Below are positions 5,274 to 57,820 of a stretch of DNA of 64,000 bases, piece by piece (positions within the stretch are counted from its first letter, which is position 1; every line of letters starts with the position of its first letter). Position numbers and translations under genes: made by a program. The DNA is from Okamejei kenojei (lineage: Eukaryota): contig CM069131.1 in the NCBI GenBank assembly GCA_035221665.1, positions 106,826,001-106,890,000 of the forward strand. The letters are read 5' to 3'. The notes below the pieces were generated by a model that worked only from the letters and a program-made list of their open reading frames with translations, did no database searches and was not told where the DNA came from.

Positions 5274-7038
5274 TTATTTTCCCGAGGGCGGTGGTCGAGG
5301 CTCCCTCACAGCAAGCAGGTGTTGTCGACTTCTCCGGTATACCGCTCCCTCACAGTCAACCAGATACGACCGTGGCTCGTCAGTCGGGTTGATAACAGTC
5401 CCCAGACGGGAATGTCCAGTTGAACTTCGTAGGCGGACGACCTGACCCGGAAGTAGAGGCTTGAGTGGTCTGCTGGAACTGTCATATGACCGTTTCTGGA
5501 TATCGTGCTTCTCTTGTAGACGTTTCTGGATAGTGGCGGGCTTCAGCACCTGAGGAACCAGTTGCTGTTGTGCGATGGGTACCGGAGGCCTCGTCAATCT
5601 CGACTTCAGTTGCTGTGTTGGCGATCCCAAGGTTCCGTCCCTGGCAACATTTCTGAGATTCAGGAGATCGAGATAAACATCTGACTTTGAAATCTGTGCT
5701 CGCTCCAGCAAGTGTTTGGCGCTTCTGACAGCGTGTTCAGCGAGTCCAATACTCTGTGGATACTTGGAACTGCTCCTGACGTGCTGGAAGTTCCATTGGT
5801 CTGCGAAAAGCTTGAACATGTGGCTGGTGAACTGCCAACCATTGTCGGTTCTCAGGCTGACGGGAGCGCCAAAGGTAGAGAAGTGTCTTTTCAGCTTCTG
5901 GATGACCATCTCCAATGTGAGGGAGGTCAGTTTTCTAGTTCAAACCAATTAGAAAAGGAGTCGACTAGAACGAGGTTGTGCTTTCCGCACCATTCGAAAA
6001 TGTCTGCCACCAGCGACGTCCAGGGCAGAGCTGGTGGAGGTTGTTGCAGAAGGGGCTGCTGCTGCTGTTGCAAGGCTGTTGCAAGCGGGGCGGGAGGCAA
6101 TGCGGTCCCGAATGTAACTGGCCAATCCCGGCCAATAGAACAGACTACGAGCGATCCAAGATGAGCCTGAGATTGTGGTCGTGCTCTGTTGCATCTTTGC
6201 CATACACTAGGATATCGTCAACAATGATGGCACAAGGTAGGTCCTTGAATAATAGCTCCATAGTTCTTTGGAAGACTTCACTGGCAGAGTTGATTCCAAA
6301 TTGCATTCTCAGAAACTTGTATCTGCCAAATGGGGTGGCAAATGTGGTGAGGTTTGATGACTCCTCGTCCAGCGGTATCTGCCAGAAAGAGTTCTTTGCA
6401 TCGAGGACAGAGAATAGGGTGGCCGTTCCGACCTTTGCCGCAACATCCTCGACAGTCTTCATGTCAGGAACTGGGGCTGATCTCTGACAAAACGGTCCAC
6501 AAGCTGCAAATTTTCTGGACCCGCTGAGTGAATTCCCTGATCTTTTTGACAATAACCTGGGCAAGTTGCCCGTGACTTACAAGATTATTATTGACCCCGA
6601 GGTGACACCTGTCATCCGACCACCACACCGATTGTCATTTGCCATGACTGACAGGGTTCACTCTGCGCTGAAGGACATGGCCTCCACAGGCATAATTGAA
6701 GCAGTCAGTGACCCCACCGACTGGGTCTCAACCATGATTGCCACGGTCAAGAAGGGAAAAAATGAAATCCGCTTGTGTATCAACTCGAAAGAACTGAACA
6801 CTACCATTAAGCGCCCACACCATCCCACTTCTGACACCATGTACATGACTTCTAGACTCAGTATGTGATTCAAATACATCTTTAATCAGCACTGAAACTT
6901 AACAGCATAGAGGATGATTAGTTGTTAGTACATCCTGGCTGCTCCAACTGTCGGTGCTGGGAAATAGTGTTAGTATAAGTATTACAGTGGGGTGGAGTTA
7001 GAGATGCTGGCTGGTGTGTGATTGGTTAACATGCAACA
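5274..7038 (-). mobile_element. Rearranged Gypsy/Ty3 LTR retrotransposon remnant (LTR, PBS, inverted RT N-terminus, RT core, integrase)
   Basis: RT motifs VLDAKNSFWQIPL, TTFATPFGRYKF and IIVDDIL; integrase motifs FYWPG, LRTDNG and SSSKYPQSIGLAE; PBS TGGTGTCAGAAGTGGGAT at 6822-6839; TG..CA bounded LTR of about 199 bp at 6840-7038. Confidence 0.85.
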
Positions 7039-7468: not shown

Positions 7469-8279
7469 GATGAATGCTGTGGTGGATGTTTTGTGTTAAA
7501 TTTTTTTATTGTGTGTCCTTTTTTATTGTACCGCTGCTGGCAAGTTCATTTCACTGCACTTTATTGTGTATGTGATTAATCAATCTGACTATTGACTATT
7601 TGTATGTTCATTGTCTTCAGAAACTGTGTAAATTTCCCTCACGTGTTGGATAGTCTAGTGTATGGGGTGATCACTGGTTGGCGTGAACTTGGTGGGCCGA
7701 AGGGCCAATTTCCATGCTATGAATCTAAACTCTATAAAGTTCAAAGAGTCTACTCCGCATTCTCCGGCCTTCTCCCCATTACCTTTGACACCTCTACTAA
7801 TCAAGAGTCTTGTCACTCTGCGCCACTAAAATATCAATTGACTTGGCCTCCACAGCCGTCTGTGGCAATTAATTTCACAGATCCACCAGTCTCTGACTAA
7901 AGAAATTCCTCCATATCTCCTTTCTAAAGGTATGCCCTTTTATTCTGAGGCTGTTCCTTCTGGTCTTAGACTCTCCCACTAGTGGAAACGTCCTCTCCAC
8001 ATCCACTCTATCCAGGTGTTTCATTTTTCAGTAAGTTTCAATGAGGTTCCCCCCTCTTCCTTCTAAACTCCACTGAGTGCAGGCCCAGAGCCGCCATACG
8101 CTTATCATACATTCTACTGTATCTTTCAATCAATCAATCTACATCATCACAGAAAATACCAGTTAATGTCAAGTAAGATTTTCTTTCTACAAATCCATGT
8201 TGACTTTGATTGATCCCGTTTTCAAAACACTCTTCTATTATATATTTAATAGCAGACTCGTACATTCTGCAAACAATTG

Positions 8280-11497: not shown

Positions 11498-13290
11498 CAT
11501 AGAAACATAGAAACATAGAAACATAGAAAATAGGTGCAGGAGGAGGCCATTCGGCCCTTCAAGCCAGCACCACCATTCATTGTGATCATGGCTGATCGTC
11601 CGCTATCAATAACCCGTGCCTGCCTTCTCCCCATATCCCTTGACTCCATTAGCCCCTAGAGCTCTCTCTTAAATCCATCCAGTGATTTGACCTCCACTGC
11701 CTCTGTGGCAGGGAATTCCATATCCAAGGGATTTTCTCACCTCAGTCTTAAATGACCTCCCCGTTATTCTAAGACTGTGTCCCCTGGTTCTGGATTCACC
11801 CAACATAGGGAACATTTTTCCTGCATCTAGCTTGTCCAGTCCTTTTATAATGTTATATGTTTCTATAAGATCACCCCTCACCCTTCTAAACTCCAGTGAA
11901 TACAAGCCTAGTCTTTTCAACCTTTCCTTATATGACAGTCCTGCCATCCCAGGGATCAATCTCGTAAACCTACGCTGCACTGCCTCAATCACAAGGATGT
12001 CCTTTCTCAAATTAGGAGACCAAAACTGTACACAATACTCCAGATGTGGTCTCACCAGAGCCATATACAACTGCAGAAGAACGTCTTTACTCCTATACTG
12101 AAATCCTCTTGTTATGAAGGCCAACATTCCATTAGCTTTCTTCACTGCCTGCACGTGCCACATGCATGCCAACTTTCAGTGACCGGTGTACAAGGACACC
12201 CAGGTCTCGCTGTACCTCCCCCTTACCTAACCTAACCCCATTGAGATAATAATCTGCCCCCTTGTTTTTGCCGCCAAAATGGATAACCTCACATTTATCT
12301 ATATTATACTGCATCTGCCACGCATCTGCCCACTCACTCAACCTGTCCAGGTCCCCCTGCATCCTCCTAACATCCTCTTCACAGTTCACACTGCCACCCA
12401 GCTTTGTGTCATCTGCAAACTTGCTAGTGTTGCTCCTAATTTCCTCTTCCAAATCATTAATATATACGGTAAACAGATGCGGACCCAACACCGAGCCTTG
12501 CGGCACTCCACTCGCCACTGCCTGCCATTCTGAAAAGGACCCGTTCACTCCTACTCTTTGCTTCCGGTCTGCCAACCAATTTTCTATCCATGTCAACACC
12601 CTACCCCCAATACCATGTGCTCTAACTTTAGTCACCAGTCTCCCGTGCGGGACCTTATCAAAGGCTTTCTGAAAGTCTAGATACACTACATCCATTGGCT
12701 CCCCTTCATCCATTTTACTTGTCACATACTCAAAAAATTCCAGAGGATTAGTCAAGCATGATTTCCCTTTCATAAATCCATGTTGACTTGGACTAACACT
12801 TTTACTGCTATCCAAATGCCATAATATTACCTCTTTAATAATTGACTCCAGCATCTTTCCCACCACCGAAGTCAGGCTAACTGGTCTGTAATTCCCCGTT
12901 TTCTCTCTCGCTCCTTTCTTGAAAAGTGGGATAACATTAGCTATCCACCAATCCACAGGAACTGATCCTGAATTTATTGAACATTGGAAAATGATCACCA
13001 ATGCGTCCACTATTTCTAGAGCCCCCTCCCTGAAGACCCTGGGATGCAGACCATCAGGCCAGGGGATTTATCATCCTTCAGTCCCATTAGCCTACCCAAT
13101 ACTATTTCTCGCCTAATGAAAATTTCTTTCAGTTCCTCTACCCCCTTAGATCCTCTGTCCTCCAGTATATCTGGGAGATTGTTTGTGTCCTCCTTAGTGA
13201 ATACAGATCCGAAGTACCTATTCAACTCTTCTGCCATTTCCTTGTTGCCCATAATAATTTCACCCGTGTCTGCCTTCAAGGGACCCACAT
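11498..13290 (-). mobile_element. 5'-truncated CR1 LINE with a long RT reading frame, inserted in an older Rex-Babar-like LINE (about 11000-11497 and 13291-13560)
   Basis: 292-aa ORF 12132-13010 with NYRPVSLTS, YLDFQKAFDKVPH, GVPQGSVLGP and SKFADDTK; (CATAGAAA)n tail at 11498-11529. Confidence 0.93.
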
Positions 13291-23196: not shown

Positions 23197-24318
23197 TATA
23201 AAAAGAGGTGAACACTGACTAGTCCATTGCAGGTACTGACCTCCCCTTTCTTTTTCCTGCCCCCACCCCCACATCAGTCTTAAGGTTCTCGATCTGAAAT
23301 GTTGCTTATTTCCTTTGCTCCATAGATGCTGCCTCACCCGCTGAGTTTCTCCAGCATTTTTGTCTATCCCGAACATCGAAGGTATCTATAAAAGGCCATG
23401 TCTCATGCTGTCATTTCACTTCTGCCATCAGGAAGAATGTATAGGAAGGTTTCATGACAGTCGGGTCACGATCCATGACCCGTGCTGTTGCTCGCTATGC
23501 CAAGTGGAGTACACGCGATGAACTGCAGGTAAGCATTTACAGCGTAGCGGGCCCGTTAAAACCCGCCGAAATGATCCATTTTTGCGCTGTAAATAATTAT
23601 GGAAATCGGGATAAGCGTGAGATACATTTAGCTTACTTCAGAATTCCAAACGTGAGGAGAAATGACAGTAGATGGTACCTTCATTTCGCTTCACTTTTGG
23701 AATTCTGAAGTTGGGTACATGACTCTCACGCTTACCCCAACTTCAGAATTCCAAAAATTCAACATTTTGCCGTTTTTTAACAGGTAGGAAAGTACGAGTT
23801 TCTTGCATTAATAACATATCCCGGAAGTGATTTGAGTACAAGAGCAGGGAGGTTCTACTGCAGTTGTACAGGGTCTTGGTGAGGCCACACCTGGAGTATT
23901 GCATACAGTTTTGGTCTCCTAATCTGAGGAAAGACATTCTTGCCATAGAGGGAGTACAGAGAAGGTTCACCAGACTGATTCCTGGGATGGCAGGACTTCC
24001 ATGTGAAGAAAGACTGGATAGACTCGGCTTGTACTCGCTGGAATTTAGGAGATTGAGGAGGGATCTTATAGAGACTTACAAAATTCTTAAGGGGTTGGAC
24101 AGGCTAGATGCAGGAAGATTGTTCCCGATGTTGGGGAACTCCAGAACAAGGGGTCACAGTTTAAGGATAAGGGGGAAGTCTTTTAGGACCGAGATGAGAA
24201 GATCATTTTTCACACAGAGTGGTGAGTCTGTGGAATTCTCTGCCACAGAAGGTAGTTGAGGCCAGTTCATTGGCTATATTTAAGAGGGAGTCAGATGTGG
24301 CCCTTGTGGGATCAGGGG

Positions 24319-24936
24319 TGTGAGATATGCGATGTGCTCACAATCACTACTCAAAGACTAAATCGTGGAAGCAAGAGATTCTTTATTTTCGAGTCTGCAG
24401 AGTCGGGTGCCTCTCCAAGTTGAGACACACCAAAGTCAGAAGGGTAAACCCCCTTTATACACATAATTCTACATCCAACCTCCTCTCCTTTGACCCCCTC
24501 CAATCAGACACTGAGGTGCACAATCTGTAGGTACGTCCCCCCAGTACCTCCCACATCATACATCGCATGTCCAGACATGTGCATGGTAATGAGCAGTTTC
24601 TTGACCAGGGGTGTGTTGTAATATTCATTTATTTTATTAAGCATGCTCAGTTGTTCATGACCTACCCTAGTTTTACTCACCTCCAAGTGAACTCTCTCAG
24701 TTCTTCTATATCAGCACTAAAGCTAAGCTATAGTGACAAGGGTCCCATCTATCACTCCATTCTACTGATAGGGATCTATCTACATCACTCCCTTCTACCG
24801 CTATACAATGCTATTACTTCTTACTCAAGGATGGGTCTGGTAACTTTTATACACAGCTGTGTCAGAACCCTCTCCCTGGCCCCTATTGGTTTGAAGCCCC
24901 TTACAATAGTGGGGTTTAATCACTTTATCCCTCACA
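24319..24936 (-). repeat. ERV 3' LTR (618 bp)
   Basis: TGTGAG...CTCACA ends; adjacent PPT (minus-strand AAAAGAAAAAGGGAGGAT, 24937-24954); minus-strand TATAAA at about 24455 and AATAAA at 24382-24387. Confidence 0.95.
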
Positions 24937-24970
24937 ATCCTCCCTTTTTCTTTTGCTACGCATCTATTGA

Positions 24971-26779
24971 TTAAACCTCAATTTCAAGTTCCCTCAATTC
25001 GAATTGACGTAACATTGTCCTAATCTCCTTTTCCTGTAGATCATGGACCTTCCCTGGTCGCATTATCATTATTTTCTGTATTTCCCCTTTCTCTCCCATA
25101 GGCATGACTACAGCCTGCATCTGACTTATACTCCTTGTAATAAGTTCCCTAAAACAAGGGATGCAACAGGGGATAAAGATCAGTCCAGCCTCTGCACATA
25201 GAAACACGAGTCCCGCTGTTCTCCACCATGTTCCTCCGAGGATGGAATCCCACCATCGGGTTCCCATAATCGAATTCCACTTCTGTATTGGAACATGTGC
25301 CAACTTACGGATTCCTTCTGATATGTCCATCACTGCCTGTCCGTTGTCATCGATGTTTAGGCAGCAATTAGAGAGGTTGAATTTTCCGCATATCCCTCCT
25401 TCTTCTGCCAGGAGGTAATCTAGGGCCAACCGGTTCTGGTATATTGCTGCTCTCATCTGTGTCTGCTGCTTTGCCAGCATCTCCAGTGCCCCCGCAGTTT
25501 GGTTGGTAATTACCTCCAGTACTGCCTGAAGTCTTATGATCCAGTTTAACATGTATACCGGGGTTCGGTAGCCCCAGGATCCATCCTGTGCCCAAGTGGC
25601 TGGTCCATAGTATGAGATGATTCTTGCGGGTGGCCATTCATCATCTTCCCATTCTCCAATGTCTATTTTCCTCTTCTTCCGATATAGGTCGTCAAATACA
25701 GGTGTTCCTAGCGACCGCCCTTCTTCGGTATTTAACAGGAAAAATCCCGATTGTACCAGTCCAATAAAGCAAGTCCCGCTCCAATTTGTCGGTAACACCG
25801 AGTATGCCTTGTGTCCGCATATCCATAACAGTCCTTCAGGGGCCGGTCCACTAGAGGTAACCTTGTTCCATATGTCTAGCAACACCGGGATTCCTTGATA
25901 AGGGTTGTTTCCTGGTGCAGTTCCATAGTCCTGTCAATTCCATTCCATCGGTCTTCAACCAGATAGTGCAGTTTCGCCCGTCTTTCTTAGTTGGATACCA
26001 TTTAGGCTCCTCTGGCCACCACACTCGGGACTGATTTGGCCACTGGGTGACGATGCGCTGGCAGGGGCTGCTGCCTACTAGGACGGCATCCCTTGCCCAG
26101 GGCCTAGCGATACACTCAGTCCCAACCGGAGCGTCTGTCAGGACCCATGCCTGGGGATCTCGGTCTTGTCCAACTGTCAGGTTCCACTCCATCAGGTCCC
26201 ATACTTCAACAATGGATCCTCTCCACGGCCAACGTGAGCTCATCAGTGGTCCGCCACAGACCCAACAGTTCAGGATTCCAGCTATCCGGAGGGCCAAGTC
26301 CACAAACAGGTTTTTTTCCTCCTTCAGGGATCTCAATCTGCTTCTTTATTTCTTTGTACAGTGTCTGGTGCAATTGAGGCTGAGTAGGTGGGGGAGGGGA
26401 AGGCTTGGTGACCACTACTTTCGTTAACCTTGTTATTACTTCCTCCCTCATTTTGTCTAATGTCCATCTTAAGGCATGGAAAGGGAGACCTAACTGCCCT
26501 GTCCTAGTCATACAAACCCATCTCTCCCCTTTGGGCAGGTAACGTACCAAACCTCCCTACATATCCTCTATTCTCTACCCTATAATACTTCTTTACCCCG
26601 TTCTCACAAATAGTTCTAGTCCTCAGGTTATAGCAAGCATCATTCACATGGAAATAATAAGTAAATAATCTGGTTGTCCACCCTCCGTATCTGATAGGAT
26701 GATAACATTTATCACAGTTATTAATACTTTTTACCATAATTACATGCAGAGCAAACAATACCACAAATGCTCCTTACAT
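24971..26779 (-). pseudogene. env: ERV3/HERV-I-like envelope gene, disrupted (stop at codon 2 and three +1 frameshifts; C-terminal 304 codons open)
   Basis: Hydrophobic signal-like N-terminus, CWVC motif, RKKR furin site, WPPARIISYYGPATWAQDGSWGYRTP, ISD YQNRLALDYLLAEEGG, C-X7-CC and a TM helix. Confidence 0.9.
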
Positions 26780-26841
26780 ACTGCTAGTTATACATTTAAT
26801 TTTTTTTCTAAAAGTTAATGTTAGGGGCTTATTTCCTGGCT

Positions 26842-27215
26842 TCACCATCCATTGTTCCTCTTTATCAGGAGCGGGTGGATCAACGAGTCCGGATTGCGTG
26901 GATCCTCCTTTTTTTCTTTTGTTCGTACTGCTGTTTCGGTTGTCAGTAATACTAGGTACGGGCCGGTCCCCCTGGGCTGGAGTTTCTCCTCCTTCCAATT
27001 CTTGACCAGTACCCAGTCGCCGGCCTTTACAGCATGTATTGGAAAGTCGAGTGGTGGGCTTTGAGCCAATAGTCCTTTAGCTTTTAATTCTGTAAGGGAA
27101 CGAGATACTGCCAGTAAATATTTCCTTAAGAATCCATCACTGCCCTCTATGGTGGGTATTTCTTCTATCTTTCCCAAATAAGGTAACCCAAACACCATTT
27201 CTTAGGGGGACACTG
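26842..27215 (-). pseudogene. pol: ERV integrase C-terminal remnant
   Basis: VFGLPY..GDWVLVKNW..LQPR.TGPYLVLLTTETAV (GPY/F module). Confidence 0.85.
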
Positions 27216-28924
27216 CTAACTTTGCATGGGGTCTCCGTTGCTTTTCTCAAAGCCTTTCTGTTTCCCTACTGCTCCATACATGTGCCAGACTCCATGTACA
27301 TATGCTGCTCTTAAAGCCTAATTTCTACCAATTGAGCTAAGCAAGATTGCAGGCAAGCTTCCAATTTGATTACCTTAAAGTCTAATCCATCCTGATGCAT
27401 CACTTCAAACCCTGCATACTTGCTATTATGATCCCTTTAAACAAGAAACATCCACAAGCAAAACCTTTTTGTCCCCTTCATTCAAAGGCTCTGACTGTAA
27501 AACATTTCTCAGACTTGTGTGTCCTTCTTCCCTCATTATTTTTCTTAATGGCATCACAATTTTAACACACTTCCCAATCTAGTCTGAACTATATCCTGCC
27601 ATTCCCAATATCATCATCATCTGTTCTACTGTCTGAGGTTTGGGAACTTCAATTATCGCTTCAATTTGATCCTGCGCTGTAGCTTTTACTTCTTTAGATG
27701 TTACTCGTCCAAAATATTCTACCTGCTGCTGACAAAACAACAAACTTCTTCCATGATACTTTATGACCTCCTATACCATCTTTTCCAAGATAATTACAAT
27801 GTCTCTCACATTGCTTCTCACTTGTGGAACAAACCAACAAATCATCCACATACTATATCAACACCTTCCAAATCTGCCTACAACATCTGATTAAAATCAT
27901 GGGACTAGTATTTAAATATGTCATATTTCTTAGCCCTCTGCCACATCCTAGCCTAGGTGTATTTAATACCTCTTCTTAATGTTCTTACCATAGCTATGTT
28001 CACCATTATCTTAATATTATTATTATTTCCTGATTACCATACCTGTTCACATCCCCAAAACCTTATCCATTACCTATCTCCTTACTAGCCTTCCTTGACC
28101 TCTTCCTTGAGATCCACCCCTCCCTTGGGGACCCCAGTCCTGTCTGGGCTTATATCCAGATTTATTTCACTCCTGATAGGGCATTTTTTGAAACACTCTC
28201 CCAAATACATTTATTATTGGCATGGAATCTCTGGTCTCTGTTTGGCTCTGTCATAGGACTCACTGTGTGTCGGTGCATCACTTATTTCTGTCAGTTTAGT
28301 GGTTCCTATCACTTTCACCAACAGTGCCTTCAAATCTCCCATAGCCAATAATCGTCCTCCAAAGCCATAATCCATTTCCTGCCCCATCAGGAATATTGGG
28401 TAAGGTATTTCTTAGCCCTCTCAGTTTATGGGTGCCCCAAAGGATAATCTGTGTCTGGCCTGCTCTTATCTTTTTAAAGAGGTCTCATCAATTTATCCCT
28501 CTGCTTCCCACTTTAATCCTTTCTGATCTGCCTTCTTTCTCATTCTAAACTCAATTTCTTACTTCTTAGATAGTTTATCCTCCTTTGCAAATTTATTCAC
28601 CTTCCTTTTAAAATCTTCCACTGACTTCTCGATTCTCATATTTTACCACCACCCCTTCTACCTCGGGGGCAGTCATCACTTTCCCCCCTACCCCCGAGAT
28701 TCTGACTTGTTTTTCACCCAATCCAATTTCTTCTGGTACCTTAGTTCCACTTGATCTCTCCGCTCCCGAATTACCATAAATGCCATATCCTCTCCCTGGG
28801 GTCCTAATTTCAAGTTTACCAGAGGTTCCCGTGTGTATCCCATACACCCCAGGGAGCAGGACCCCCGACTTCCCTATTCTTCCTCCATGAGTGTGTACGA
28901 CTGCACCTCCCGTCGTAGCCTGGG

Positions 28925-30400
28925 TCATTCCCTCTTGAAATGACCCTCCTCGTTACAATAGTAACACCGGGATGGCCCCGTGTACCACCCTCCTGATCCT
29001 TGTTCCTTGTTTTCCCGGGGACCCCAACTTCGGTCCCTCCATTCACCTCTTCTTCGTCGTCTGTCTCTGCCTCTTCCCCTTCCCCGGTCTCCATGAGCAC
29101 CCGGCCTTCTATCACCTTCGTCTCCCTTCTTCTTTACCCCTTGGTGTACTGCCTGCAACATCATTTTTGCCTTTCCCTTCTGTTTTCCCACCTTTCCAAC
29201 TTATCTGTAGCATATAATTCATAATTAACACTTCCATCTTATCACACATTTATCTTGACAGTATCTTCCTTGGGCCACTTCCTCACCAATTTCCTTTCTT
29301 TCTCCTCATTTCTCAGAGTGCTTTCTTCAGATACAGGGAACTTTTTACTTAGCAATTCAACTGCAGTTATCTTACTTATTGTATTATCTTTCTTTGTGCA
29401 CTATATCAATTGGTTGCATCTTAAAAACAGGTAAAATACAACATATTAAAGCAAACCATACAACCTTCACTTTTTCTGTCGAACAGGGGCGATCAAAGGT
29501 GAATACCTCTTTAACTCATGTTTAACTCATTGTCTGCCAACTCCTTTTTTTTTTCTCCCCTGGGCCCCATTAATTTATTACCCTTCTCCAACCAGAATGT
29601 TTATCTAAACAAACCATAAGCTGCTTGTTGTTCAGCAATTAACTTATTTCTAATTTTGTTCAAACCATTCTCCCTACAATTCCCAAATTCCAATTCCTAG
29701 TTTAAATACATACGACTAACAATTTTCCAAATTAACTTTACTGAAAAGAAATCTATAGAAGCCAAGCAACCTACATTTTCCAACTTTCCCCTTTTAAGTT
29801 GCGATGATACAAAGCATTGTCCGTTACCTTACAGCTGTTCGTAACCTCCCCCATTGCTTACAATTTCTTAAAGGAACACACACACCTACCCTTACAGCAT
29901 GTGGCCTACAACAAATAAACTTATCACATATATAAACTTCCTCATTCATACAAAACTGGTTTTTACACACAAATCACATTAGTTCCATTCTTACTTCAAT
30001 GAAATTAAGCAATTTCATATTTTGCACTAACTCCTCATGTACCTGATCAATCTGTATATGAGTTTCTTCTATAGATTGTGTGAAACAACTCAATATTTCT
30101 TTCATGTGCTGATCATTCTTTTTTAACTTTTCGTACTCAAAACATTTGGCACTGTGATTTTCCTTAGATTTTTCTTAGATACTCTGAATATTCTGTACAG
30201 TCCAGTGCCACCAGACTGAACTCCCCCTTATTGGTTCCTTTGGTTAATCAAAATAACATAACTTAATCATAGTCTCCTTATCTTTACCCCCGGGGCTTCC
30301 TTCTCCCCAAGATTGCCACATTCGCCCCAATGGACTATCAGGCGGATTGTGCGGCTCTTCACCAGTGTGAGCCTTGTCCTGTTTCCCCCCGGACTCTTAC
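28925..30400 (-). pseudogene. gag: ERV gag remnants (MA start and NC zinc knuckle, decayed sequence between)
   Basis: IPPDSPLGRMWQSW near 30310-30350; CYYCNEEGHFKRE near 28928-28967. Confidence 0.7.
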
Positions 30401-30688
30401 TTTTCCCGTTCCGGTTATCTTTATCTTATCGGACTATTCCCGTCCAACAGACCCCCGGTCGCCCAGGCAATACTTAATAGTCAGTTTTCTTACCTGGGTC
30501 TTGTGCACAAGAATCGCTCGACCGTCCCTTGTTTATTTATCTGACACTCCCTCTTGCTTCCTGAGTCTTTTGCCCGAATTTCACTCGCTCAAACCGCTGA
30601 TGGCAAGCAAGGAGATCAGAGACTGCTGAAATTAGCAGGGTGCACCTTCCCTTCCTTCTTTTCCTCCACCAAGCAGCCGGGAGTGGCG

Positions 30689-30705
30689 ATCACAGACGAG
30701 CCCCA
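30689..30705 (-). promoter_or_regulatory. Primer-binding site, tRNA-Pro-like
   Basis: TGGGGCTCGTCTGTGAT just inside the 5' LTR versus canonical TGGGGGCTCGTCCGGGAT. Confidence 0.75.
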
Positions 30706-30709
30706 AGTT

Positions 30710-31333
30710 TGTGAGATATGCGATGTGCTCACAATCACTACTCAAAGACTAAATCGTGGAAGCAAGAGATTCTTTATTTTCGAGTCTGCAGAGTCGGGTG
30801 CCTCTCCAAGTTGAGACACACCAATGTCAGAAGGGTAAACCCCCTTTATACACACAATTCTACATCCAACCTCCTCTCCTTTGACCCCTCCAATCAGACA
30901 CTGAGGTGCACAATCTGTAGGTACGTCCCCCCCAGTACCTCCCACATCATACATTGCATGTCCAGACATGTGCATGGTAATGAGCAGTTTCTTGACCAGG
31001 GGTGTGTTGTAATATTCATTTATTTTATTAAGCATGCTCAGTTGTTCATGACCTACCCTAGTTTTACTCAACTTGAACTCTCTCAGTTCTCCTATATCAG
31101 CACTAAAGCTAAGCTATAGTGACAAGGGTCCCATCTATCACTCCATTCTACTGATAGGGATCTATCTACATCACTCCCTTCTACCGCAGTACAATGCTAT
31201 TACTTCTTACTCAAGGATGGGTCTGGTAACTTTTATACACAGCTGTGTCAGAACCCTCTCCCTGGCCTCTATTGGTTTGAATCCTCTTTAAAGCCCCTTA
31301 CAATAGTGGGGTTTAATCACTTTATACCTCATA
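30710..31333 (-). repeat. ERV 5' LTR (624 bp)
   Basis: Direct repeat of 24319-24936 with about ten substitutions and four indels counted by eye. Confidence 0.95.
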
Positions 31334-31904
31334 GGGGGTATGGAGAGAAGGCAGGTACAGGATACTGAGTTGGATGATCAGCCATGATCATGTTGAATGG
31401 CGGTGCAGGCTCGAAGGGCCGAATGGCCTACTCCTGCACCTATTTTCTATGATTACATGACGGATGTCCTCCAGATGGATTGAGCGGCTCCATGCGTCAA
31501 GCCCTATGACCCGGTGACCTTACGTGCAAACCCTCTATAAGAATCTGAAAACTGTAACAGAGGTTGAGGAACAGCTTCTTCCCAACAACCGTCGGACTAT
31601 TGAATACTACCATCTCGAACTAAACTCTGAAATGCCTGAGTTTCATTAGGGACTTTGTTTTTGTTTTGCACTATTTTGGATCTTCTTATTTATTGAACTT
31701 CCTTTTTTTGATGGTTCATTATATTATCTGTTGAGTGTTGTATTTGCAGCCTGTCATGTGCTGCTGTTGTTGCTGCTGCTGCTGGTAAGAATCTAATTGT
31801 TCAGTTTCGGGACATGTGACAATACAATGCTCCTAACCAAAGATAGCTCCTCTTGTATCTTTGCTCCTAACACAATGCTCAATGACCATCAGCAGCGAAG
31901 TCGA

Positions 31905-51462: not shown

Positions 51463-54419
51463 CGCCTTTTAATAACATTTGTATTGTTATTGTACAAATT
51501 TCAATTCTTGAGAGAGAGGAAGACTTGAGAAAGTGAATGGCATGTCACGAAGACAGTCTGCATTACAGTTGAAGTGCTAGATATTCTAAAAAATATGAAG
51601 TTGGAGTAACTCAGCCGGTCTGACAGCATCTCTGGAGAAAAGGAATAGGTGACGTTTTGTGTCGAGACCCTTCTTAAATACCCTGACTAATTAAGGGAAG
51701 TGTGCCTAATGTTGCCTTTGTTGTGTACCTGTGTCAGTACTTTTAGGGAACAAGGTGCCTGTATTCATAGATCTCCGTTGTACAGCCCTCTGACTCCTAC
51801 CAAGCCAATTTGTATCCAATTGGTGAGCTCATCCTGCATACCATGCAATCTAATGTTCTGGAGGGGTCTACCTTGTTAAAGGCCTTGCTGAAGGTGAGAT
51901 AGATAATATCTACCACCCTGCCCCGTCCAAAAGTGCAGCTAATTAAGTGATTGATCTTATTTCTTGGTATCCTGTTAACCTGTTTATTCTATTCAGAGGT
52001 TTATGGCTATTACTGCTTTATTTGCCTGGTTCTTTTTTTTGTGTACTGTCGAAAAACATCCTTCTGACCTTTGACAGATTTTGATACTTCCTAACACTAA
52101 ACAATTCATGCTTAACTGGACTGTCTGACTACGATGTACAGCAATAATAGATTTGTAATGTTAGATGTCATGTCATGTTAGATGTCATGTTTGATGTCAG
52201 TGACATTAATGTAAGGAGAAAAGACAAGATGAGAACGACTTTTTGATGTGTGTAGGAGAATAAATCTGATCAAAAAATATCTTTAGTCTAGTATGGAAGT
52301 AAATGTGGACCTGGTTCTGAGGAATAAAATAGAACAAATGGAGTGTAACAACAGAAATTGTTAGTTACAGTGACTTCAACATGATTCAGTTTGATAACGG
52401 CTGGTCTATCTATGAAAAGTAAATTGTTCCTTGCACAAGCGATGGCCTCACTAATTTGAAGGAAGGTTGGAGGGGTCCAAGATTGGTAGATTGAAAAACA
52501 AGGATGTAGGAGAATTGTATCTTTCATAACCTCAAATCATCCCATACATGGCTGGAATATATTCTAAAGTGCCATCTCTGTGGTGATATAGTAAAAGTCA
52601 AAGAGCAATGAGATGGGATTAGATCTTTAAAGTTGAGTGATTTCTGGTAGTATTTCTGGTTCTCATTCATTTAAAACATGGTCTCATTTATGTGACTAAA
52701 ATATAATTTTATTTTGGAGTCACGTGAGTGACTTCATGAAGACCCCGCCAGCACGCATGCGCAACATATCGTCGCTCGCATTTGCTGTCGACAAGCTGGG
52801 GGGGGGGGGGGGGGGTGGGGGAGTGCGCTCTCTCCACAGCTCCTTCAACAAGAACGCTGAAGGTAAGTATACTAACCTTAAGCTGGTTGGAGGTAGGAGG
52901 TGTGCTTCTACCTACAGAATATGGAAGGGGAAGCTTCACAAGAGCCGCAGGACGCCAACAGGCCAGCGGCCACTTTCTCCGGAGCTGCTTGAAACACCGA
53001 CAGCACCCGTACGGCCGGGAAAAGGTGCGGAAGTTGGGCGCGTCAGTGACACCAGCGTCCAACTTATCTCTGGAATGGATGTCCACACTGGAGCAGGGTA
53101 TGGCAGACCCTGACTTCGTGCTCCCATCCCCCAGGAAGAGGGGGAGCAAGCAGGTACGTGGCACAGTGCCTCGCATACCGGCGGCGGCATCACCCTGTGT
53201 TTTTCAGGTCCCATGGGGGCGGAGCCGGGGAAAGACGGCGCCGCAGACGAGCCCCGCAGCCGTGGCTGGCCTCGTAAAGCAGCCGGGGATATCTGCCGTA
53301 GTACAGGCCGGCAGAGCTACTGCTGCGTCGAGCAGCCCTGCAGGATCAGGAGCTGCCGACATAACACCGGGTCAGGCTGCGGTCGTGGACGCCGGTGGCA
53401 GCCATAAACGGTCGACCAGCTTAGCATTGGCAGCTGCCGACCTTGCGCCTCCGCAGAGACAAATGGTCAGAAGTGGAGGTAAGCCTACACGGACTTCGGG
53501 GAGCCAGGTACCGGCGGCCGGCGCCAACTCATCTCCACTGCCTTCCTACCAGGCTGGGGGACCGCCACAGTCCGCTTGAAGGCCGACTAGCGGTATGCAG
53601 GAGCAGCTGTCCACGACGACCTACCACCGGACCCTAGTCTGCACTTTATGGAGGTGTGGTCCGCTGGTCGAAGCCCCAGAGGAATTGCAGAGCCTGGGGA
53701 AGTCGGCTTGTCCGCCGCGTGTAGCGGGGACGGTTGCATGGCAAGGTTGGAGCTCTTGGTGGAGCAACTAGTCCAGCGGGATCTGGTCCGGGAGGAACGG
53801 GGGTCTCGGGCATCCACAAGCCACTACAGGAGACCGCCCAGCATCTCGTCTTCTTCAGCCAGCAGTGCCAAAAGTCAGCAGGACGTTGCCTTCGATGAAG
53901 AACCAGAGATGCCGGAGGCCGCAGACCCAGAGGAAGGTGCTGACCTGCTGGACGTAGTGGGGAAATTTGCCACAGCTACCCACACAGGGGAGCCGCTGCA
54001 CCCTAACCTGGCGGGAACCCATTAATTATCTGATCACACACCAGCTTCAGGGTCAGGTCATCAATGAAACCGTGAAGCTCTAAGATGCACGACGTACGCC
54101 TCCAGAGAATCCTCAAACTCCTGTCGACGGGCAATACGGCATATGCCAAGACCCTCGATGGGGGTAACGTGACCAGTGAGCAGCAGGATACCCTGGCACT
54201 TCTCTGCAATACAGTTTGAGATAAACTGTCTTCGTAAGAGCTCCATCCGGCCCACTCTCAACCCAAAATTTGCAGGGTTGTGCTGTACCTCCACCACTCC
54301 ACCACCTCATCAGCTGTTCGGGGAAGATCTGCCGAAACACCATATACCAAGACCCGCTGTTGACCATGGAGGTAAGGGGGTCTGGTTAGTCTAAGAAAGT
54401 AGCAATTATAACCTCACAA

Positions 54420-55350
54420 GTGGGACGGTTGCGGGCATTTCGGGGTGCATGTGATGCAATCACCACAGACACGTTTATTCTACAAAGTGTTCACGGTTAT
54501 GTCATAGAATGTATTAATGGGAAACATCCCCCTACACAGCATGAACCTCAGCGCACATTTGCGCTCTCTCAAAAAGAGATAAAGGGGGGACATGCAGAAA
54601 TTCTACGGCTAGCAGCCAAAGGGGTGATAGGGAAAATGACACACGAACCCCTTGAGTTTGTGTCCAACGTCTTTACAAAAACCACAAAGGATGTTGGATG
54701 TCTGATTATCAGAGACCTAACCCATTTGAACACTTTTGTACAATATACCCATTTCAAAATGGAAACCTTTGAAACAGCTAAGCAGCTGCTTTACCAGGGG
54801 TACTTTATGGCTTGCATCGATTTAAAAGATGCATACTATACAGTCCCCATCATAGAAACTCACAGGAAGTTCCTAAAATTTGTCTGGAGGGGACAGTTAT
54901 GGCAATACAAAGCCTTACCCAATGGTTTAACCACAACCCCAGACCTTTAAAATAGTCGAGGAAGGGCCGAGAGGGCCTGTCTCCGTGCTGTAATTGTTAT
55001 ATGGTTATAGTCAAACCAATATTGGCAATCCTCAGGCAACAGAATTATATCGTCATGGCATACTTGGACGATATACTTATAGTGGGACAGACCCTCCAAT
55101 TGGCAAAGCTGGCAGTCACAGCGACCAAATTTTTATTCGAGACATTAGGGTTTGTAACCCATCCAGACAAATCGAAACTAACCCCATCTCAAGTGATGGA
55201 CTATCTGGACTTCACCAAAACGAATGATGGTCACTATCCCGACCAACAAAGCGTCAGACATAAAAGAAGCATGCAACAGCCTTGCTTGTGCCAGGGTACT
55301 GACTATCAGACAGACGGCCAAGGTAATTGGGAAATTGGTAGCTACGTCCC
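54420..55350 (+). pseudogene. DIRS reverse transcriptase (frameshifted)
   Basis: HFKMET, CIDLKDAYYTVPI, WQYKALPNGL and AYLDDIL motifs. Confidence 0.9.
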
Positions 55351-56113
55351 CATTCAGTATTGATGTGGATAGAGAACCTGGCAAACGAGGAAGCGTAGGA
55401 GTAAACGGGTTCCCTTTTCACAATGGCAGGCAGAACTAGCGCAGGGCTCAGTGCTGGACCCAGCTTTTTTACCCATTCTCCAAGTTTGCATGACACTAAG
55501 CTTGTGACCAAGGTGACAAGGCTGGGTGACAATGTTTGTCAGATGCAGCCAAAGATATTATTTAAATGCGATCAGCAGACCTGGCACATGCAGGTGCAGC
55601 AGGCAGTGAAAAAAGCAACTGCAAAAGGATTTGAGTACAGGAGGCAGGAGGTTCTACTTCAGTTGTACAGACCGGATATTGCGTGCAGTTTTGGTCTCCA
55701 AATCTGAGGAAGACTGCCCATAGAGGGAGTGCAGAGCACCAGACTGATTCCTGTGAGGACTGGATAGAGTACTCTCTGGAATTTAGATTAAGGAATTAAG
55801 AAACTTACAAATTCTAAAGGGGGATAATGCAGGAAGATTGATGCTATCCTTTAAGACCGAGATGAGAAGTTTCTGAAACTCTCTGCCACAGAGGGTGGGT
55901 TGAGGCATTCATTGGCTATATTTAAGAGTGAGTGGATGTGGCCCTTGTTGGCTAAGGGATCAAGGGTATTAATTGTTAGATGAATGGCCATCGATGAATG
56001 GCACTCCTGCACCTAATTTGTTTCTACTATGTTTTTTCCACTGCCAATCCATTGCGCAAGAGCGGGGGGCTGTCTATTAAGGCTAAAAGCTAGCTACACC
56101 ACGTTAGCAAGTC

Positions 56114-56937
56114 ATGCTAGTGGCGCGCAGAACTGACACCACGTCCAGTTGTGGTGGCAGATGGGACCCTCACGAGTCTACCCTCCTCCAGACACAAGGG
56201 ATAAACTATCTGGAGATGTTAGAGGCTTTCCATGGACTGCGGGCATACTGCACAAACTTACAGCATTTACATGTCCGCCTCCAAATAGATAACACCACGG
56301 TGGTGGCTTATATAAATCATATGGGTGGTATCAGGTCATTATCTTGTGACGAATTGGCAAACACAATCTGCACTCGTGCATTGAGAGAAATATTTGGATA
56401 ACAGCGACCTATCTACCAGGGAAGCTCAACACAGTGGCGGACACCAGGGCACGAGTGTTCAATGATAACATCGAGTGGATGTTGAACCCCCAAATATTTG
56501 CTGAAATTATAGCTAACTTTGATGCACCAGATATAGACCTTTTTGCGTCCAGGTTGAACCATCAGATATCAACGTATGTGTCTTGGGAACCAGACCCTGG
56601 GGCAGTTGCTATGGATGCTTTTTTTCTCTATTGGGGGAAATGGTTTTGCTACGCTTCTCCCCCATTTTGCCTCATGAGTCGGGTATTGCAGAAAATTCAA
56701 CTGGATTCTGCTACAGGCATTATGATCATACCCGACTGGCCTACACAGCCATGGTACCCGGTGGTCCTCCAAATATTGAAACGTCCGTGGGTTCAAATTG
56801 ACAAAAACCCCAAATTTATTACCAACCCCATTACGGGGGAAAGTCACCCGTGCCATGGTCACTTAAACCTGTTGGCTTGCAGGTTCTCAAGAGGCCGCTT
56901 ATCAAGGCCGGCATATCAGCCATGGCCATGGACCTGA
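56114..56937 (+). pseudogene. DIRS RNase H plus Dam-like N6-adenine methyltransferase domain
   Basis: INYLEM..LQIDNTTVVAYINHMGG (RNase H); DIDLFAS.LN, DAF..W, YASPPF and IPDWPTQPWYP (MT). Confidence 0.85.
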
Positions 56938-57820
56938 TCTCAGCGTCGTGCAGAGCATCAACCAGGAGGCAGTACCTCACCCAGGTCAGGAAGTGGGAGG
57001 CCTTCTGCTCCCGTACCAATACGACCTACAACTCTGCCACGATCCCCGATGTCCTGGAATTCCTAGCGGGCCTCAGCTACAGTGCCATCAACAGCGCCAG
57101 GAGTTAGCGCCTGGACATAGGGGTGTGGGCTCACACCACCTGGTGTCCAAATTCATGAGGGGAGTGTTCAACACCGACCCTCCACGACCCCGATACAACA
57201 TCACATGGGACGTAGGGATAGTACTGACCCTACTGCGGAGCTGGTCCCCTATGATGGGGTTACCACTCGATAAGCTCACCCTCAAAGTGGGGATGCTGAT
57301 GGCCCTGACTACAGCTCAACGAGTCCAGGCCTTACAGAAGCTGCGGCTGGGTAGAATGGTCTCCACCCCTGCTAAGGTAACTTTCTTTGTAGAGGACCTG
57401 CTGAAGCAGCACAGACCTGGGTCTTTTGGGCTGCAGTTGGAATTCCGGGCGTACCCCACTGATGCCACCCTCTGCATAGCCACACATCTCCGCTACTACA
57501 TCAGAACAACACGAACCATCCGGAAGATGGAACAGGGGCTCCTCATCAGCCACAAGCAACCACATCACCGTGTGACTGTGCAGACCATCACCAGGTGGCT
57601 CAGGGCGGTGTTGGATGCAGCCGGAGTAGATACTAACATTTTAAAATCTCACTCTACCAGGGCTGCTTCCACATCAGCGGCGAGGGCCATGGAGGTGCCC
57701 ATGCACCACATCCTCGCCACTGCGGGCTGGGCCAGTGCAGCAACATTCCAGCGGTTCTACAATAAGCCGGTGGTCGCCCCCGCAACATTCGCGGAAGCCG
57801 TGCTGGGAGCCGCTCCGTGA
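56850..57820 (+). pseudogene. DIRS tyrosine recombinase (one frameshift or deletion near 57105; catalytic domain open)
   Basis: LTTAQRV (R), KSHSTRAASTS (H-x-x-R), AGW and FQRFY (catalytic Tyr). Confidence 0.9.

Follow-up and report, generated by a model that had tools for sequence, protein, structure and literature searches.

A provirus of the skate Okamejei kenojei with class I ends, a whole but broken env, and a decayed middle that appears to come from a second retroviral lineage

The DNA analyzed in this study is a stretch of 64,000 nt from Okamejei kenojei (assembly GCA_035221665.1, contig CM069131.1, positions 106,826,001 to 106,890,000), referred to here as the window, which holds a provirus of 7,015 bp on its minus strand (24319..31333; all features of the element given below lie on that strand). 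In the orientation of the element, its parts are a long terminal repeat (LTR), a leader and the start of gag matrix (MA) from a retroviral lineage designated A, an unassigned old block, the nucleocapsid (NC) and protease start of lineage A, a likely gag remnant of a second lineage, B, the palm and thumb of a lineage B reverse transcriptase (RT), a lineage B RNase H, the tail of a lineage A integrase (IN), a lineage A env, and the second LTR. We consider it probable that this provirus is a dead member of a mosaic family that is multi-copy and non-coding, in which the ends of class I lineage A enclose a decayed lineage B middle, and which was spread by helper proteins with env likely carried along as a passenger.

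The 5' LTR (30710..31333) carries TATAAA at 30850 and AATAAA at 30778, and its outer end reads TA instead of TG; the 3' LTR spans 24319..24936. As had been counted in an earlier interpretation of this DNA made without database searches (the sequence-only reading), the LTRs differ by 10 substitutions and four indels (1, 1, 5, and 11 nt), here across 630 aligned columns. By eye, the U3 of both LTRs shows a short motif in imperfect duplicate (24740-24810 and 31126-31196), which may be an enhancer repeat. The integration marks described in the same reading were also recovered: a degenerate primer-binding site (PBS; 30690..30709) directly 3' of the 5' LTR, which we take to be tRNA-Pro-like, a polypurine tract (PPT; 24937..24956) preceding the 3' LTR, and a GGGG target site duplication (TSD; left copy 24315..24318, right copy 31334..31337). 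The left flank ends in four G and the right flank in five, whereas the empty host repeat, recovered in loose contig ends of two public sequencing runs (X6 and X16), has five G, which indicates a 4-bp TSD. The host repeat around the insertion is presumably the 3' end of a CR1-like long interspersed nuclear element (LINE), and its depth was ~80 to 500 times that of the interior of the provirus in runs X1 and X16 (calculated by hand). Two LINE ORF2 pieces, which we also take to be CR1-like, were observed at 12132-13067 (minus strand) and 23831-24318 (plus strand); it is a very high-copy repeat of this kind that received the provirus in its 3' end. The paired LTRs, short TSD, PBS, and PPT, together with an IN C-terminus of the murine leukemia virus (MLV) type (MLVIN_C) and a gamma-type env (TLV_coat, with an immunosuppressive domain, ISD, and the CX7CC motif), mark the element as a class I endogenous retrovirus (ERV1).

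The Jukes-Cantor distance between the LTRs was 1.65% (95% confidence interval, CI, about 0.8-3.0%), a value possibly inflated by assembly or RT errors. For sharks, one source gives a mutation rate of 7e-10 per generation with a tenfold-wide CI (PMC10587355), at which, by hand calculation, the LTR distance would correspond to the order of ten million generations. The integration, described as recent in the sequence-only reading, is therefore young only relative to the interior of the element, and dates back millions of generations at the shark rate.

The gag-pol interior consists of a series of broken blocks. The lineage A MA start (30201..30400) is CpG-rich and weakly similar to the bird gag P0134 (40% over 50 aa, E 0.049). 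It is followed by an A-rich, CpG-poor block (29201..30200; CpG observed/expected ratio, o/e, 0.29) that is multi-copy, for which Pfam searches in three frames returned nothing informative and all Atlas matches were below 0.9 and without names. Judged from its composition and by resemblance, this block is likely an old lineage B leader and MA start. The end of the lineage A gag and the protease start (28626..29200; CpG o/e 0.62) comprise an NC knuckle (zf-CCHC, E 1e-4), whose region carries an internal stop, and a truncated protease (28831-28626; 23/49 identities to P0122) with a frameshift at the catalytic motif (~28772). Downstream of it lies a second, out-of-order gag remnant (27991..28625; CpG o/e 0.09), which likely derives from lineage B and for which Pfam gave no match. 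Within this remnant, a capsid-like piece (28411-28217) matched Gag_p30/p24 clusters in Atlas (0.94, 214/256 features in common), and its ten best named Atlas matches were all Gag; with a recognition value of 2257, slightly below the mark of 2300, the capsid assignment is a lead.

The lineage B RT remnant (27495..27990) retains motif B, YVDD (27852), palm, and thumb (27973-27495), lacks the fingers, and is interrupted by frameshifts and by a premature stop (27581-27579). The RNase H remnant (27222..27494), in which the first catalytic position is altered, is directly joined to the thumb. The connection domain (~170 aa) is deleted, and the RT/RNase H piece corresponds to residues 1-42 and then about 212-321 of the stingray protein P0171. 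Besides large deletions, at least four frame changes occur within 770 nt of this block, as read from the frames of the high-scoring segment pairs (HSPs). The lineage A IN C-terminal tail (26800..27221; MLVIN_C, E 1.7e-9) carries a stop at ~27204 and a frameshift at ~26910. Thus, the MA start (weak), NC knuckle, and IN tail that the sequence-only reading had recognized are present, and so are remnants of the RT, RNase H, and protease whose motifs it had declared absent. Most of the remnants are overlooked by Pfam alone, with RVT_1 reaching E values of only 0.03-0.07, and this explains why the sequence-only reading had not recognized them; PDB matches of the RT pieces were to MLV/XMRV RT and likewise weak (E 0.02-0.9). 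Pfam matches to a scorpion toxin, ANIS5, and LITAF were dismissed as chance.

Discordant affinities were found along the element. The IN tail shares 83/100 identities with the skate pol P0121 (lineage A), compared with 34/103 at best among 16 proteins of the B set. In contrast, the RT thumb is closer to the stingray P0171 (28/42) and the Mobula P0180 (29/41), both of lineage B, than to P0121 (16/51), and the RNase H end matches P0171 (19/29) better than P0121 (8/23). P0122, the match of the protease start, is related to P0121. Judged from these comparisons, the RT and RNase H remnants are from another lineage (B) than the protease start, IN tail, and env (A). In a tree of 27 rows and 90 columns, from which P0171 and P0180 were excluded because each covers half of the RT piece, the RT piece fell among the B rows with modest support (81/85). 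An approximately unbiased (AU) test rejected its placement inside the A clade, both when this clade comprised seven core A rows (p 0.017) and when it was restricted to the two closest skate-type rows (p 0.0009); P0219, P0206, and P0289, labeled A in the tree, form a separate gamma-like group and were kept out of the clade.

Base composition agreed independently with the existence of two lineages. The A blocks had a CpG o/e of 0.55, as against 0.18 for the blocks of lineage B taken together with the unassigned ones (100/182 vs 13/71; Fisher test of CpG vs GpC, p 5e-7; RT/RNase H block alone, p 0.005). The ratio reached 0.67 in the leader and MA and changed in steps near 30200, 29150, 28600, and 27150 in 200-nt windows. 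Moreover, a capsid-like piece downstream of the A protease start is out of order for a single virus. The affinities, AU test, capsid-like piece, CpG content, and RNase H all indicate a central segment from an older, different retroelement. The sequence-only reading had taken the interior for the element's own gag-pol decayed in place; instead, it is largely old second-lineage sequence that was swapped in. Lineage A is gamma-like, close to bird ERV1 pols, and lineage B, judged from general traits, is likely epsilon-like; in the tree, whose rows included no named epsilonretrovirus, the nearest neighbors of the RT piece are batoid or unnamed proteins. The more distant pols of the B set have a long spacer between protease and RT, an epsilon trait. 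A-type pol ORFs of 882 aa occur in at least six Leucoraja records. The closest pol match of the IN tail (84%) is from Leucoraja erinacea and the 882-aa A-type pols share 81/97 residues over the IN tail, suggesting that the Leucoraja pols represent a sister family, rather than a proven parent.

The lineage A env (24971..26779) is gamma-type, ERV3-like, full length, and broken. Its CxxC, furin site, ISD, and CX7CC motifs are visible, and it aligned to the intact 597-aa protein P0154 over residues 1-597 in four HSPs (59-83% per HSP); at the top of the match list, the closest named env rows belong to Chiloscyllium, Hemitrygon, and Narcine (57-67%). Together with the IN tail, whose best match is from Leucoraja, env thus has its nearest named relatives among batoids and sharks, in agreement with a skate host. 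The colinearity noted in the sequence-only reading is thus borne out, but env is not intact, being interrupted at codon 2 by a stop and further on by three changes of frame, near 26530, 26315, and 25900. The LTR indel rate predicts 5.9 env indels and three frameshifts were seen (P 0.16), a lesion count that fits the LTR clock, so that env was plausibly open at insertion and may have decayed neutrally since then. The NC, protease start, and IN tail derived from lineage A carry four lesions in about 1.0 kb, compared with four in 1.8 kb of env. P0001 represents another copy, with an open stretch of 423 aa that is ~95% identical to the window env in frame. In addition, length differences among contigs from other copies occur at, or close to, each of the three env frameshifts, which indicates that those breaks are not fixed in the family. 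With 40 of 356 rows displayed, 14 env variant sites were visible, of which 5 are third codon positions; most of these changes are private. A related ERV3-like env was observed in the P0005 cluster of Hemitrygon akajei, with 41 members, many of them 556 aa long and open, which points to a possible young expansion of env-bearing ERVs in this stingray.

With regard to env expression, a major splice donor is predicted in the leader (CAG/GTAAGA, 30488..30496), which is among the two best of 323 GT sites, with one mismatch to the consensus. A candidate env splice acceptor (27089) lies in the IN tail, ~310 nt upstream of the env start; it tied for second among 528 AG sites, and in a shuffle control its score was not significant alone (116/2000, p about 0.06). 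All foreign sequence falls between the candidate donor (30494) and the candidate acceptor (27089), and the env expression unit appears anatomically whole.

Copies elsewhere were detected in public data. Of the 24 listed runs, 20 hold part of the stretch, with shares of 0.36-0.60 and from at least four organisms; as the best share is just 0.60, these runs suggest other copies and not this locus. Runs X1 and X16 (one organism) and X6 (a second organism) covered 30/30 bins, and run X21 (raw reads, another organism) contained no provirus sequence, its 2/30 covered bins being flank only. At eight listed variant sites (27327-27775), 14-54 contigs per site were found in X1 and 17-43 in X6. This deep, variant-rich cover in three of the four runs may reflect amplification to many independent loci, with the flanks of other copies not seen in these contigs. 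The sequence-only reading had held that an interior unique to this copy would tell against it; the interior was multi-copy in X1, X6, and X16. The junction between protease and foreign sequence was bridged by a 322-nt X16 contig (depth 457), and a 770-nt X16 contig (depth 6, 87% alike) left the match at the thumb/RNase H deletion point and continued, behaving as an undeleted B element would. Because the contigs are short, linkage is established only locally. In X6, the A NC-protease block had about one quarter of the depth of its neighbors, and a depth dip at 30029-30255 was present in X1, X6, and X16; by these two features, subfamilies of the mosaic differ. A 71-nt stretch within 30001-30072 was skipped by contigs in all three skate-like runs and may be subfamily-specific.

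Lesions of the interior were also found in other records. Relatives were obtained with phmmer over representatives using the RT/RNase H frame (207 matches, of which the best 150 were listed). The records P0169 and P0319 (52/54 identical to the window) end at the premature stop of the window copy and share its aberrant sequence downstream of YVDD, and do not carry the frameshift that the window copy has near 27745; the thumb-to-RNase H deletion junction is also spanned by P0176 (31/32). The RT/RNase H frame gave no match in a word-based homolog search, and no loci were returned when viral_contigs was scanned with P0171 and P0121, or when the env ORF was used against metagenome_contigs. The shared lesions would predate this insertion, unless these records are the orthologous locus elsewhere; with this reservation, the three records indicate that the capacity to code for Gag-Pro-Pol was lost before the element inserted. 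If decay preceded insertion, the element must have moved with Gag-Pol provided in trans. Mobilization by Gag-Pol supplied from elsewhere, already proposed in the sequence-only reading together with ruin of gag-pol before integration, is thus well supported.

We propose that A genomes were packaged together with RNA from an old B element that had already decayed, and that the A middle was replaced stepwise by at least four template switches, near 30200, 29200, 28620, and 27215. A stepwise accumulation of the switches is suggested by the fact that subfamilies differ. The mosaic would have retained the cis signals beside both LTRs, and helper proteins would have reverse-transcribed and integrated it; the helper would be a lineage A virus, as the cis signals adjoining both LTRs are A-type. 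Env may owe its survival to the position of the last switch, immediately upstream of it, and to the absence so far of anything that favored its loss.

Several observations weigh against this interpretation. The summed contig depth of the B block 27305-28212 relative to env, calculated by hand (0.5x in X1, 1.4x in X6, and 0.66x in X16), is not a copy number; within env, bins differ by as much as fivefold, and B elements without A parts may contribute some of the B depth. The 27215 junction was not clearly bridged by any listed contig of X1, X6, or X16, and the B interior and env were seen on one molecule only in this copy. The orthologous locus of a related species may be what P0169, P0319, and P0176 represent. 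Only 90 columns underlie the RT tree, with just 81/85 for the branch joining the window to the B rows, and no cognate helper was found, the best pol match to the IN tail being 84%. The LTR itself is CpG-poor (0.25), like the B blocks; LTRs commonly are CpG-poor. Finally, the 2.2 kb comprising acceptor and env that the element retains is more than is kept in the mammalian cases discussed below, which a passenger model does not predict.

A rival explanation, which takes up the suggestion of the sequence-only reading, is a two-component system, in which the mosaic is mobilized by the Gag-Pol of a helper and its spliced env mRNA supplies Env, so that env is under selection while the interior, as an intron, is free to rot. 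A whole env, the retention of both candidate splice sites, and the confinement of foreign DNA to the interval between them would fit such a system, as would the open reading frame of P0001, the unfixed env breaks, and a lesion count compatible with an env open at insertion; moreover, since env is no deeper than the interior in X6, the majority of the env copies in that run could belong to the mosaic. However, the window copy has a dead env, the acceptor does not reach significance in the shuffle control by its score alone, and the functionless A blocks show about the same degree of preservation as env, which recent origin explains. The few, mostly private env variants showed no excess at third positions, the intact sister env P0154 implies that A-type viruses had an env of their own, and no env-less helper was identified among the protein and contig matches. 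We therefore rank an env carried as a passenger, which we judge to be probable, ahead of an env maintained as a donor, to which we give a rather low probability. A bipartite germ-line retrovirus of skates, in which a high-copy mosaic unable to make Gag or Pol confined its junk sequence to the env intron and supplied Env, from a selected and spliced env, to the particles of an env-deficient Gag-Pol helper, seems rather unlikely. If true, it would be the mirror image of the usual loss of env and, in effect, a segmented germ-line retrovirus.

Less probable still is the reverse polarity, in which an old non-autonomous B element with its own LTRs was the backbone that captured A blocks (leader, NC-protease, and IN tail with env), and the helper was B-type. 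The CpG content of the LTRs, similar to that of the B blocks, and the low depth of the A NC-protease block in X6, where many copies would lack it, as might be expected of an insertion into an uninterrupted B gag, agree with this polarity, but it needs extra switches at both LTR borders, where the A-type leader/MA and the A-type env/PPT adjoin the LTRs, and CpG-poor LTRs are common in general. The provirus might also be an old locus that only seems young, because of gene conversion between its LTRs, with copies produced by host segmental duplication. With a slow shark clock the insertion may be old in years, and distinct flanks of other copies were not seen in the contigs; nevertheless, the TSD is intact, env and the A blocks have decayed as little as the LTR distance predicts, and two organisms show high depth across the whole element, LTRs included, all of which makes this explanation very improbable. 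An ordinary single-lineage provirus decayed in place would account for the roughly gag-pro-pol-env order of the genes, but it is already largely refuted: the pieces disagree in their affinities and the blocks in their CpG content, the AU test speaks against it, a second capsid remnant is present, and lesions are shared with other records. We regard it as barely credible.

Elsewhere in the window, ORFs resembling RT, RNase H, and a tyrosine recombinase were recognized by eye in a row at 54390-57820 (plus strand), likely a fairly well-preserved DIRS-type retrotransposon. Remnants of a Ty3/Gypsy-like RT and integrase lie at 5274-6820, with RT-like matches on both strands.

The helper-spread mosaic favored here has parallels in mammals. 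Replacement of the central segment by a piece of an old retroelement, with the flanks kept, is described for the C and D types of bovine ERVK[2-1-LTR], for MusD/ETn, and for koala retrovirus (KoRV) and its recombinant recKoRV (PMC10924933). Like the skate element, the bovine D-type is defective, ~7 kb long, and formed by an old central piece between flanks with gag and env portions, and it is complemented in trans by competent copies, which it can outnumber (PMC10924933). However, the bovine D-type is beta-type, mammalian, and endowed only with portions of env, whereas the skate element is class I and retains a whole env together with the IN tail (PMC10924933). Furthermore, the skate element, unlike the bovine D-type, changes between A and B blocks no fewer than four times. 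The recombinant of KoRV and PhER is also similar: in a backbone of gamma type, the middle has been replaced by a resident retroelement that is dissimilar and degraded, with many independent breakpoints and subsequent proliferation (PMC6112702). Of the KoRV genome, recKoRV1 retains only the gag leader up to position 1177 and the part of env that begins at 7619, env being destroyed, in contrast with the whole env of the skate element, and recKoRV is under 50,000 years old, whereas the skate family was detected in several organisms (PMC6112702). A review on env recombination cites recKoRV as a case of env degradation (PMC10536682). Mouse ETn/MusD and the mysTR-related subfamilies of the deer mouse share with the skate element non-homologous internal DNA, conservation of the region upstream of the 3' LTR, and mobilization in trans; unlike the skate element, these derivatives are without env (PMC10924933, PMC10089650).

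In the literature searched, whose coverage was partial, no account of the skate family or of a non-autonomous ERV acting as Env donor was found. A pol deletion is carried by chicken EAV-HP. EAV-HP is described as defective, believed to be helper-spread, and the env source of ALV-J, a precedent for an env reservoir, although it is alpha-related and donated its env via recombination, rather than by demonstrated supply in trans (PMC4607243). In anamniotes, cartilaginous fish included, epsilon- and gamma-related class I pols have recombined with gamma-type env, according to a survey; those ERVs are pol-env chimeras classed on Pol of >600 aa, whereas the B pol of the skate element is a gutted passenger (bioRxiv 10.1101/2021.11.23.469661). 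The skate family would extend the central-swap, "parasite-of-a-parasite" pattern from cattle, koala, and mice to cartilaginous fish and to a cross of two distant class I lineages, which suggests that such a swap is a general fate of germ-line retroviruses. Seemingly abundant, present in several species, and endowed with a whole env, the family also raises the question of whether a non-autonomous ERV can be selected to keep env, splitting Gag-Pol and Env between elements. Compared with these known systems, the skate family, which is real and likely abundant, is distinguished by its host group, the cross-lineage donor, repeated switching, and the retention of a whole env unit.

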